Source: Actinomycetota bacterium (lineage in GTDB: Bacteria; Actinomycetota; Geothermincolia; Geothermincolales; RBG-13-55-18). From it: a stretch of DNA of 64,000 bases. The notes beneath the pieces were generated by a model that was not told where the DNA came from, did not search any database, and worked only from the letters and a program-made list of their open reading frames with translations. Position 1 is the stretch's first letter. Each line of letters starts with the position of its first letter. Positions 37,995 to 52,728 of this stretch are shown piece by piece. The DNA lies in assembly GCA_040757835.1 (NCBI GenBank), contig JBFLWJ010000002.1, forward strand, positions 127,498 through 191,497, in the 5' to 3' direction. A program made the position numbers and the translations under genes.

Positions 37995-38477
37995 TTATTC
38001 CAGGTCGAACTCCTCTTTCTCTTCCTCCTGCTCGGGAGGGCCCTGCAGCCTCTCCCTGGCCCGCTTGATCACCTCGAGGAGCTTGTAGCACGTGACCTCC
38101 AGGTTGGCCAGGCGCTCATCGGCGTAATCCTCCGCCTCCAGGCGTATCTCCCTCGATTGCGCCTGGGCGTCCTCAATGATCCTCTCCGCTTCAGCCCGGG
38201 CCGTCTTGATGATCTCCGTCTCCTCGATCAGGCGCGCCCTCTCCTCCATGGCCTCCTCATGGATGCGCTCGGACTCTTTGCGCGCCTCGTCCATGAGTTC
38301 CTGCTTCTCCTTGACCATCCAGCGCGCCTGCTTCAATTCCTCCGGCAACGAGCTGCGGAACTCGTCCAGGAGCTCGAATATCTCCGTCTCGTTGACCATC
38401 ACGGAAGAGGAGAACGGCACGTGTTTGCTGGATACGATGAGGTCCTCTATCCTGTCCAGTTGTTGAAAGACGTCCAT
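37995..38477 (-). CDS. acidic coiled-coil protein (ATP-synthase-b-like / DivIVA-like), unknown function
   Basis: 160 aa, predominantly E/R/K-rich heptad-like sequence. Starts 1 codon after the coaD stop in the same frame. Confidence 0.3.
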   Translation of the reverse strand: MDVFQQLDRIEDLIVSSKHVPFSSSVMVNETEIFELLDEFRSSLPEELKQARWMVKEKQELMDEARKESERIHEEAMEERARLIEETEIIKTARAEAERIIEDAQAQSREIRLEAEDYADERLANLEVTCYKLLEVIKRARERLQGPPEQEEEKEEFDLE

Positions 38478-38993
38478 CTAGACCGCCCCTTTCTTCAACA
38501 TGTCGAATTTCTTGTTGAACATCTCGCCAAGCTCCTTCTCCAGGTTCGCAGGTACCAGCCCGGTTATGGAGCCTCCGTATGCTGCTACCTCACGTACCGC
38601 GCTTGAGCTGATAAACGTGTACTCCGGTGCGGCCATGACGAAAAACGTCTCTATCTCTTCGCCCATGGCCTGATTGATCTGTGACATCTGGAACTCATAT
38701 TCGAAATCACTGATGGCCCTCAAGCCCTTGACGATGACCGTAGCGCCGACCTTGCGGGCGAAATCGACCAAGAGGGTATCGAAGGACGTCACCTCGACGC
38801 CATCCAACCCCGCGGTGGCCTTCTCCAGCAAAGAGACCCTCTCCTCCACGTTGAACAGGGGCTGTTTAAAGGGGTTGACCGCTACGGCCACGATAAAGCG
38901 GTCGAAGTGCCTGTACGATCTTGTGATCACGTCCATGTGGCCGCAGGTGATGGGGTCGAAAGTCCCCGGGCAGATCGCGACTTTGGCGTCTAT
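38478..38993 (-). CDS. coaD: phosphopantetheine adenylyltransferase, with proposed non-ATG (ATA) start
   Basis: Track ORF starts at ATG 38936 ('MDVITRS'). The essential nucleotidyltransferase motif 'ICPGTFDPITCGH' is encoded in-frame just upstream of that ATG. The only plausible initiator is ATA at 38991-38993, preceded by SD GGAGGAGGG (6-nt spacer), giving 'MDAKVAICPGTFDPITCGH…' (171 aa). Confidence 0.7.
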   Translation of the reverse strand: MDAKVAICPGTFDPITCGHMDVITRSYRHFDRFIVAVAVNPFKQPLFNVEERVSLLEKATAGLDGVEVTSFDTLLVDFARKVGATVIVKGLRAISDFEYEFQMSQINQAMGEEIETFFVMAAPEYTFISSSAVREVAAYGGSITGLVPANLEKELGEMFNKKFDMLKKGAV

Positions 38994-39020
38994 TGCAGCC
39001 CCTCCTCCACTTACGCTGTT

Positions 39021-39578
39021 TTACTCTCTTACATAAACATCCACCGCGGATTCCCCGTACTTCCGCCTCTCCCGGAAGTTCACTCCTTCAGGCGGACCCG
39101 GGGGCGAGCTCCGCAGTGGAGCCTCTATGATCACCACCGCCGACGGGGCAAGGAACCCGCCTTCGGCTAGACTTTTTAGCATCTTCTGCCGATAGTTCAC
39201 ATCAATTCTAAAGGGTGGGTCTATAAAAATCAAATTGTACGGCGCCGGGGGAGGCGAGGCTTTTCGCAGGTAATCGAGAATCTCGGCCCTCACCACCAGA
39301 CCCCTGTCCGCCATTCCAAGCATATCCAGATTTTCCTGAATAATACGGATGGGCGCACCGCCACGGTCCACGAAAACCGCCTCCTGCGCCCCCCGGCTCA
39401 ATGCCTCCAACCCCAGTGAGCCGCTCCCTGCGAACAGGTCGAGCACCCTTGCGCCCGCTGTCCTGTCAGAGAGCATGCTGAACACGGCCTCGCGCACGAA
39501 GTCCCTCATGGGTCGAGTGGCCCTGCCCCTGGGCGCCTTGATATGTCTCCCTTTTGCCTCTCCCGCTATTATCCTCAT
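39021..39578 (-). CDS. rsmD: 16S rRNA (guanine966-N2)-methyltransferase
   Basis: 'VLDLFAGSGSLGLEAL' SAM motif and 'DPPF' catalytic motif. Confidence 0.85.
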   Translation of the reverse strand: MRIIAGEAKGRHIKAPRGRATRPMRDFVREAVFSMLSDRTAGARVLDLFAGSGSLGLEALSRGAQEAVFVDRGGAPIRIIQENLDMLGMADRGLVVRAEILDYLRKASPPPAPYNLIFIDPPFRIDVNYRQKMLKSLAEGGFLAPSAVVIIEAPLRSSPPGPPEGVNFRERRKYGESAVDVYVRE

Positions 39579-39592
39579 GCCACCATTCTAAG

Positions 39593-39692
39593 GTATGGGG
39601 TCAGGCCCTGACATGTGACGTTTTCTGATAGCCGAAATGCTTAAATATCTGCATTTGCGGAAAATGTCACATGTCAGGGGCTGACCCCATAC
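39593..39692. repeat. ~100-bp near-perfect palindrome: 27-bp inverted-repeat arms (26/27 complementary) flanking a 46-bp AT-rich spacer
   Basis: Left arm GTATGGGGTCAGGCCCTGACATGTGAC (39593-39619). Right arm GTCACATGTCAGGGGCTGACCCCATAC (39666-39692). Spacer holds a nested AAATGC/GCATTT inverted repeat. Right arm overlaps the last codons of the sortase-like ORF. Left arm ends ~15 nt upstream of the rsmD start. Confidence 0.8.
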
Positions 39693-40504
39693 AGGGAGGC
39701 GCGCATGACGTAGCGGTAAGACGGGTGGAAGGTGGGCGAGGGCCTGCCGTTCTCGGCGCAGCAGACGAAGGCGGTCAATACCGCGCTGGCAGTGGGGTCC
39801 AGGATCCACATGGCCGTCTCCTCCACCACCTGGCCCTCGCTCCACCGGTAGCGGTATTCCCTGCCGCCGTAGTTGAGGGTTATCTCGTCGCCCTCCCGCA
39901 GGTCGAAGAGTCCGTTGAAGGGGAAGTCCACCTGTCCACTGGCGTGGGCCATGACCACGTAATTGCCCCTGCCGGGACGCCCGGTACCGGGATAATGCCC
40001 GACCCCGAACCCGATCACGCTGGCCACTCCCTGCGGGTCGTTTCCCTCTATTACCTCCCCCTGGAAAGAGAACGCCGGTATCTCCATGGTCACGCCGTCC
40101 CCTCGCGTAGTAAAGGCGACCACCACCTCGCCATCGAAGGCCGTTCCCCGCATGTCCTCGGCTATGCCTGGACCGAGGCGGAAGGTATAGGCGGTCTTGG
40201 GTGCGAGGAGTGTATCTGGCACGACCAGGCATTCAGACTCGCCGCTGACGGAGAAACCCACCGGCGGCTCGAAAGAGACCGCCCGGGACAGGCTGTCCAG
40301 ATCCATGGGACGGTCGAAGGAGAGTGCGATGGCGGTGTCCCTGCCCAAGCCATCCCCCCCACGGGGGGAATAGCGCATGAGCCGGGGCCCATCGGCGACC
40401 CCGTAGGCCATCGCCGGGGACACGGCGGGAAGCACCAGCGTCAGCATGCACGCCATCACCAGCATCGCCGTTACCCGCCTTAGAGCCTCTACTCCGCTCA
40501 TCAC
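39674..40504 (-). CDS. sortase-family transpeptidase (class E-like) with N-terminal membrane anchor and Ig-like domain
   Basis: C-terminal half aligns by pattern to SrtE: 'GxGH..GT..PG.GGN.V.A.H…F..L..L..GD.I……G..Y.YR…LTAFVCC…R' (His, Cys, Arg triad positions). N-terminal hydrophobic segment plus beta-rich Ig-like region. Confidence 0.5.
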   Translation of the reverse strand: MMSGVEALRRVTAMLVMACMLTLVLPAVSPAMAYGVADGPRLMRYSPRGGDGLGRDTAIALSFDRPMDLDSLSRAVSFEPPVGFSVSGESECLVVPDTLLAPKTAYTFRLGPGIAEDMRGTAFDGEVVVAFTTRGDGVTMEIPAFSFQGEVIEGNDPQGVASVIGFGVGHYPGTGRPGRGNYVVMAHASGQVDFPFNGLFDLREGDEITLNYGGREYRYRWSEGQVVEETAMWILDPTASAVLTAFVCCAENGRPSPTFHPSYRYVMRASLYGVSP

Positions 40505-52651: not shown

Positions 52652-52728
52652 TGGCGCCCTTGGGGAGATTCGAACTCCCGCACGTGGCTCCGGAGGCCAC
52701 TGCTCTATCCACTGAGCTACAAGGGCAC
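52652..52728 (-). tRNA. tRNA-Arg (anticodon CCG), CCA encoded
   Basis: Hand-folded: GUGCCCUUGUAGCUCAGUGGAUAGAGCAGUGGCCUCCGGAGCCACGUGCGGGAGUUCGAAUCUCCCCAAGGGCGCCA. Acceptor, D, anticodon (loop CUCCGGA) and T-arm (GUUCGAAUC) all canonical. Confidence 0.85.

Follow-up and report, generated by a model that had tools for sequence, protein, structure and literature searches.

The window analysed here is the whole stretch of 64,000 nucleotides from an Actinomycetota contig. On its minus strand lies rsmD, followed in the same operon by coaD, a gene of coenzyme-A biosynthesis that is normally essential. The rsmD product scores 144.8 bits against the TIGR00095 RsmD profile (cut-off 117.5). At the other end, the coaD stop codon TAG is directly adjoined by the ATG of a gene for a coiled-coil protein, which occupies this place after coaD in every related locus and is itself followed by a YceD-family gene. 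The features discussed below are collected in Table 1.

Table 1. Coordinates of the coaD translation initiation region, its neighbouring genes and the other features found in the window.
Feature	Position	Strand	Basis or remark
rsmD (16S rRNA m2G966 methyltransferase), 185 aa	39021..39578	-	ORF list; TIGR00095 match
rsmD stop codon TAA	39023-39021	-	sequence reading
Mini-ORF GTG GAG GAG GGG CTG CAA TAG, out of frame	38990..39010	-	sequence read directly
Shine-Dalgarno sequence GGAGGAGGGG, two overlapping GGAGG cores	38999..39008	-	invariant in 8/8 clade members
5-nt spacer CTGCA between Shine-Dalgarno and ATA	38994..38998	-	CNGCN in the clade, 2/5 positions variable
ATA, putative coaD initiation codon	38991..38993	-	8/8 clade members, G always next; start of MEW6553256.1
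coaD read from ATA, 171 codons and TAG stop	38478..38993	-	TIGR01510; PDB PPATs
GCC, coaD codon 3, position of the ATG start in sister lineages	38985..38987	-	L004 alignment
ATC, coaD codon 7 (Ile7)	38975-38973	-	conserved as ATC/ATT
Codons for PGTFDPITCGH (nucleotidyltransferase T/HxGH motif)	38937..38969	-	all 5' of the first ATG
First canonical ATG of the coaD ORF (Met20)	38934..38936	-	false start of the 152-aa IMG/JGI calls
coaD as 152-aa ORF	38478..38936	-	mechanical ORF list
160-aa coiled-coil protein	37995-38477	-	weak DivIVA/Wag31-like and ATP-synthase-b-like matches
Inverted repeat, arms of 33 nt	39593-39625 and 39660-39692		94% complementary, 34-nt loop
Sortase-like ORF	39674..40504	-	
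TPP riboswitch RF00059	49857-49951	-	61.5 bits vs gathering score 54.3
tRNA-Arg (CCG), sole tRNA gene in the window	52652-52726	-	

The mechanical list of open reading frames gives coaD only as a 152-aa ORF beginning MDVITRS. An earlier note on this DNA had pointed out that the first ATG of that ORF lies downstream of PGTFDPITCGH, the catalytic motif, and that the 28 in-frame codons between the rsmD stop and this ATG contain no ATG, GTG or TTG. Both statements were borne out by direct reading of the sequence. The codons that follow the rsmD TAA are AAC AGC GTA AGT GGA GGA GGG GCT GCA ATA GAC GCC AAA GTC GCG, continued by ATC TGC CCG GGG ACT TTC GAC CCC ATC ACC TGC GGC CAC and then by the ATG. 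CTG and ATT are likewise missing from these 28 sense codons, and the only near-cognate codons among them are the ATA and two ATC. The ATA lies 6 nt past GGAGGAGGG, as the earlier note had stated, which is 5 nt past the whole G-run and 7 nt past the second GGAGG core of the Shine-Dalgarno (SD) sequence. As a rough reference range for this spacing, we used the convincing canonical starts of the window, taken from an ORF-tiling survey; these follow their GGAGG core by 4–10 nt, a range that includes the 7 nt of the ATA. The internal ATG, by comparison, has no SD sequence before it in the window. Two further searches gave nothing distinctive. Scanning the window simply for GGAGG combined with a near-cognate codon was uninformative, GGAGG being common within GC-rich coding sequence, and the predicted RNA structure around the translation initiation region was nothing unusual (minimum free energy of −28.8 kcal/mol versus a shuffle mean of −30.7, z = +0.6).

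Reading coaD from the ATA gives the protein of normal length that the earlier note had anticipated. The 171-aa product scores 192 bits against the coaD profile TIGR01510 (cut-off 103.3), with residues 5–158 covering profile positions 1–154 of 155, and aligns over residues 4–155 with phosphopantetheine adenylyltransferases (PPATs) in the PDB at E = 1e-46, residue 4 falling on residue 3 of the E. coli enzyme (1B6T). The codons upstream of the first ATG encode ...VAICPGTFDPITCGH, i.e., strand beta-1 and the T/HxGH nucleotidyltransferase motif, a stretch that aligns residue for residue with solved PPAT structures. PGTFDPITCGH matches PGTFDPITNGH of E. coli PPAT and is part of the product only if translation starts 5' of the first ATG. 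The C-terminal ISSTxxR-type motif is present as well, with ISSSAVRE aligned to ISSSLVKE of the E. coli enzyme. Judged by profile and alignment, the window protein is an ordinary CoaD, or phosphopantetheine adenylyltransferase (TIGR01510, PF01467), which has the family membership, length, motifs and rsmD–coaD operon context of canonical bacterial PPATs (TIGR01510; 1B6T; the sister-lineage proteins P0002–P0015).

The public databases contain this protein in two forms. A protein search returned GenBank MEW6553256.1 (171 aa, 100% identical, 'MAG: pantetheine-phosphate adenylyltransferase [Actinomycetota bacterium]'), whose deposited annotation already begins at the ATA. The other closest proteins fall into two groups, one of 169 aa beginning MT(V/T/I)AICPGTFDP, and one of 152-aa IMG/JGI calls beginning MDVITR, which have the same truncation as the ORF list of the window; at least 10 such truncated calls are deposited. 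No 171-aa homologue with a canonical Met at the ATA position was found among the 120 matches listed, and the nearest named relatives among them were Candidatus Solincola sediminis (72% identity) and a Geothermincolia bacterium (61%). No publication on a non-canonical start of coaD turned up in a literature search. Gene callers limited to ATG, GTG and TTG cut this essential CoaD down to a catalytically dead 152-aa product, and such truncated calls can mislead pathway-completeness or essential-gene analyses of these MAGs.

The comparison of orthologous coaD 5' ends that the earlier note proposed was carried out. Related loci were found through exact-protein look-ups of the truncated calls and their cluster members, and the resulting set, referred to below as the ATA clade, comprises the window and seven further contigs (L001, L002, L003, L090, L091, L092 and L093; n = 8), drawn from at least seven samples or assemblies. 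Two broader scans added ATG-bearing relatives: a metagenome contig scan with a back-translated VAICPGTFDPITCGHMDV pattern returned a single contig, L084, and a genome contig scan with the CoaD protein returned L004 as one close relative among the matches listed. In all seven further contigs, which come from other samples or assemblies and have diverged flanks, GGAGGAGGGG-CNGCN-ATA-GAN stands at the homologous place. A neighbour-joining tree groups the eight ATA sequences as monophyletic, apart from the ATG-bearing L004, L084, L087 and L089. A canonical in-frame start 5' of the N-terminal motif is missing from six of the seven contigs (L001, L002, L003, L091, L092 and L093), the exception being L090, discussed below.

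The clade is deeply diverged. Between the window and the other members, dS is 0.64–0.85 and dN/dS is 0.07–0.10 over the whole gene, and the coaD ORF is intact in every member. Across the 14 codons AICPGTFDPITCGH leading up to the first ATG, nine sites differ among clade members; each of the nine is a third codon position, and none of the changes alters the amino acid. This pattern shows purifying selection, in the coaD frame, on the stretch from the ATA to the first ATG. No clade member departs from the others in the SD sequence or the ATA, compared with 18 of 59 four-fold degenerate sites (0.305, ~30%) that are invariant. Invariance by chance has a probability of ~0.03 if the ATA is taken by itself and of ~2e-7 if the ten SD bases are included.

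Two members narrow down the start further. In L003 and L091, a TAA in the coaD frame lies six codons before the ATA, which confines the start to AGT GGA GGA GGG GCC GCA ATA GAx GTT AAy (G/A)TC GCG ATy. The near-cognate codons in this stretch are the ATA and the conserved ATC/ATT, to which L091 adds an unconserved ATC two codons earlier, and the ATA is the sole one correctly spaced from the SD sequence.

In summary, the window has no canonical start for coaD, selection acts on the N-terminal stretch as coding sequence, SD sequence and ATA are both conserved, and sequencing error, readthrough and frameshifting are excluded on the evidence given below. From this pattern, we put at roughly 80% the probability that coaD is functional and that its translation starts at the near-cognate ATA behind a very strong SD sequence. 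The AUA would be decoded by the initiator fMet-tRNA, with GGAGGAGGGG placed 5 nt upstream and the GGAGG core 7 nt away, and the product would be a normal-length PPAT of 171 aa beginning M-DAKVAICPGTFDPITCGH, with (f)MDAKVAICPGTFDPITCGHMDVITR as the predicted N-terminal peptide. Initiation of ribosomes at the ATA is the step that we infer. The strong SD sequence, possibly together with coupling to termination on rsmD 27 nt upstream, would partly offset the weakness of the codon. Genuine ATA initiation, one of the options listed in the earlier note, is supported by the presence of ATA and SD sequence in 8/8 members, by purifying selection and by the 171-aa annotation in GenBank. Two observations weigh against it: AUA is a weak start in model bacteria and coaD a gene that is normally essential, and L090 carries an in-frame ATG, so that at least the L090 lineage may use another start.

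The ATG-bearing relatives suggest how this arrangement came about. Sister-lineage CoaD proteins (P0002–P0015) begin MT(V/T/I)AICPGTFDP and are 79–86% identical to the window protein, and their coaD starts at an ATG two codons downstream of the ATA-homologous position, whereas the ATA clade has lost that ATG and gained two N-terminal residues. For instance, L004, with identical spacing, reads GGAGGAGGGG CCGCG AGA GAC ATG ACG GTA GCT ATC TGC where the window reads GGAGGAGGGG CTGCA ATA GAC GCC AAA GTC GCG ATC TGC. The codon homologous to the ATA is AGA, GGG, GAG or ATT in the ATG-bearing relatives and never ATG. Because the ATG of these relatives is two codons further downstream, at the GCC of the window, the ATA is not a mutated ATG; the alignment indicates an upstream shift of the start by two codons, which brings it nearer to the SD sequence. 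The change would have occurred once, in the ancestor of an uncultured Actinomycetota clade near Candidatus Solincola / Geothermincolia. The ancestral ATG, 11 nt past the G-run and hence at an unusually long spacing, has been replaced by GCC, GCA or GTT. Two codons before it, at the better spacing of 5 nt past the G-run, a codon resembling AGA has turned into ATA. This shift toward the SD sequence would have added the two N-terminal residues to CoaD.

Among the alternatives, translational coupling survives best. It holds that initiation at the ATA is driven mainly by ribosomes that terminate on rsmD, remain on the mRNA, are captured by the SD sequence and re-initiate, with little de novo initiation by 30S subunits, and it is a variant of ATA initiation with the same start site. 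The genes of the operon are closely spaced, 27–28 nt separate the rsmD stop from the ATA in all clade members, the coaD stop directly adjoins the next start codon, and rsmD–coaD synteny is kept in every locus fetched, all of which suit coupling. Against it, the gap is 27 nt, whereas one survey of termination-reinitiation (PMC10666635) reportedly ties coupling to overlaps or very short intergenic distances, and a very strong, invariant SD sequence is what one would expect for independent recruitment of 30S subunits. We regard dominant coupling as possible but clearly the less likely form of ATA initiation.

A second alternative places the start at another non-canonical or newly acquired codon, either the conserved ATC/ATT of Ile7 or an upstream codon such as the ATG of L090 or the CTG of L092 and L093. 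The ATC/ATT is near-cognate and conserved, and the ATG of L090 is used by gene callers. The ATC is 25 nt from the SD core, far outside workable spacing, and it encodes the beta-1 Ile, which is equally conserved in ATG-bearing relatives that have their Met three codons upstream. The window, L001 and L002 have no such upstream ATG or CTG, and in L003 and L091 the in-frame TAA separates that position from coaD. A start at any of these codons is therefore improbable for the clade as a whole.

The L090 start region is an observation in its own right. In this contig (ENA ERZ25039461 contig_15762), an in-frame ATG at 2001–2003 has been gained eight codons upstream of the ATA (TAAAATAATG), 4 nt past the rsmD stop, and gene callers used it to predict P0127, a protein of 179 aa. 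In its sisters L092 and L093, the corresponding codon is CTG, and L090 itself keeps both the ATA and the SD sequence. The upstream ATG of L090 may be a canonical start that is being re-acquired through coupling.

A further alternative is readthrough of the rsmD stop, giving an RsmD–CoaD fusion, or a programmed frameshift from the out-of-frame mini-ORF over the SD sequence. The earlier note had observed that rsmD and coaD are in the same frame; this holds for the window, L001 and L002 only, and the relation is not conserved in the other relatives. In L003, L090, L091, L092 and L093, the interval from the rsmD stop to the SD sequence is one base longer, a 1-nt indel that breaks the frame in 5/8 members, and in L003 and L091, an in-frame TAA follows the rsmD stop. 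Readthrough is excluded because the shared frame is not conserved and because of this TAA. Of the earlier note's option of coupling or readthrough, only the coupling part stands, and coupling still amounts to initiation at the ATA. For frameshifting speaks a mini-ORF with a (G/T)TG start and an ATAG end in 8/8 members. Against it, CAA-TAG offers no slippery heptamer, and the ribosome would have to shift by −1 (or +2) onto non-cognate codons to enter the coaD frame; the mini-ORF has no SD sequence of its own, and no RNA structure stands out around it (z = +0.6). DTG precedes GAGGAGG in ATG-bearing relatives too, where in three of four lineages (L084/L085, L087/L088 and L089), the resulting frame does not end at the start codon. 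A prfB-type frameshift or a readthrough is marked by a conserved frame relation combined with a slippery or leaky site, a combination that this locus does not have. Both forms of this explanation are very hard to credit.

The idea that coaD is a decaying gene, or that a 152-aa protein is made from the internal ATG, has the IMG/JGI calls of 152 aa on its side, and is just as hard to sustain. The low dN/dS, the intact ORF in all members and the purely synonymous changes in the upstream codons contradict decay, and the 152-aa start is implausible because its product would lack beta-1 and the catalytic motif and because no SD sequence precedes the internal ATG. Finally, a sequencing or assembly error with a true codon of ATG, an option of the earlier note that has some prior plausibility only in that the sequence is a MAG, is refuted and of negligible probability: the same ATA is found in seven other contigs (at least seven separate samples or assemblies with diverged flanks), no 171-aa homologue in the protein search has a Met there, and the relatives' ATG is at a different codon, two positions downstream.

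Initiation at near-cognate codons is an established, if uncommon, property of bacterial translation. In E. coli, infC and pcnB both start at AUU, and these non-canonical starts are discriminated by IF3. AUA also supports initiation in E. coli (10.1101/063800; PMC5499595). Annotations of model genomes include ATA starts, and in E. coli reporters, AUA, AUC, AUU and CUG give 1–2% of the AUG signal (10.1101/063800). In vitro, an AUA mRNA with an optimised translation initiation region behaved like the AUG mRNA at 20–40 degrees C, but nutrient limitation and ppGpp had strong effects on every non-AUG start (PMC5499595). For infC, ccpN and citZ of S. aureus, AUA starts were mapped by retapamulin ribosome profiling (Ribo-Ret) and validated with reporters; they have extended SD sequences, reach ~10–30% of the output of AUG and are responsive to the growth medium (PMC13009471). 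By analogy with both sets of reporters, i.e., 1–2% of AUG in E. coli and 10–30% behind the extended SD sequences of S. aureus, the yield from the coaD ATA would be expected to stay below that of an ATG.

The S. aureus genes are the closest parallel to coaD. They share with it an AUA codon, the lack of a usable canonical start, a strong or extended and well-spaced SD sequence, and conservation of the codon among relatives. The gene and the phylum are different, coaD being from Actinomycetota, and the S. aureus cases were validated by Ribo-Ret and luciferase reporters, whereas that of coaD is built on comparative genomics. The likeness to E. coli infC and pcnB lies in a conserved AUN near-cognate start in a housekeeping gene. 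In infC, whose codon is AUU and whose product is IF3, the start serves autoregulation (PMC5499595). An infC-type loop, in which the gene encodes IF3 or is otherwise coupled back to the fidelity of initiation, does not fit this locus, whose gene is coaD and whose codon is AUA. We know of no link between CoaD and initiation fidelity. With no canonical start upstream, an SD sequence at workable spacing and conservation beyond the neutral expectation, the coaD ATA appears from its sequence context to be a further case of the known class of near-cognate (AUA) bacterial starts. It adds a clade-conserved AUA start in a housekeeping gene outside Firmicutes and Proteobacteria, with a visible evolutionary path, namely a two-codon shift of the start toward the SD sequence with loss of the ancestral ATG, and it leaves general knowledge of bacterial initiation unchanged.

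PPAT is the secondary control point of CoA biosynthesis. A more ambitious proposal, which we consider doubtful, is that the ATA was selected as a translational throttle and not just tolerated. A start sensitive to IF3, ppGpp and nutrients, combined with a maximal SD sequence, would tie PPAT synthesis to the initiation capacity and growth state of the cell. Sensitivity to IF3 proofreading, and with it a built-in throttle, would be expected for coaD by analogy with infC and pcnB. If this were true, the upstream shift from a poorly spaced ATG would represent adaptive rewiring and not drift.

A 157-aa relative, P0065, was considered as a second case of a non-canonical coaD start and rejected, since an in-frame TTG upstream identifies it as a gene-caller mis-start. 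It is encoded by a low-GC distant relative (L094 1441–1467; GCA_900174595.1, FWPV01027362.1; 68% identity), in which coaD was called from an internal GTG within the DPxTxGH motif. L094 also has an in-frame ATC 6 nt past AAGGAGAGG, with the canonical TTG three codons on, which makes its true start ambiguous.

The mini-ORF over the SD sequence is six codons long and reads (G/T)TG GAG GAG GGG CNG CNA TAG in 8/8 clade members. It spans the SD sequence, and its TAG overlaps the ATA as ATAG; in L004, an analogous mini-ORF ends in ATGA over the ATG of that contig. We examined this overlap as a possible coupling device and set it aside, since the mini-ORF lacks its own SD sequence, DTG is also present in the ATG relatives, and the frame varies. 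We take the mini-ORF to be a probable by-product of how the SD sequence is composed and spaced.

Upstream of rsmD, the window contains an inverted repeat of two 33-nt arms, located between the 3' end of the sortase-like ORF and the rsmD ATG. It is the only such pair in the window. The native 3' end of the upstream gene, with its TGA stop, makes up one arm, of which the second arm is an inverted copy. In L091, L001 and L085, ~70 nt are missing at this site, and the repeat is therefore a lineage-specific insertion. It may form a strong hairpin or terminator, or be what is left of a MITE-like element.
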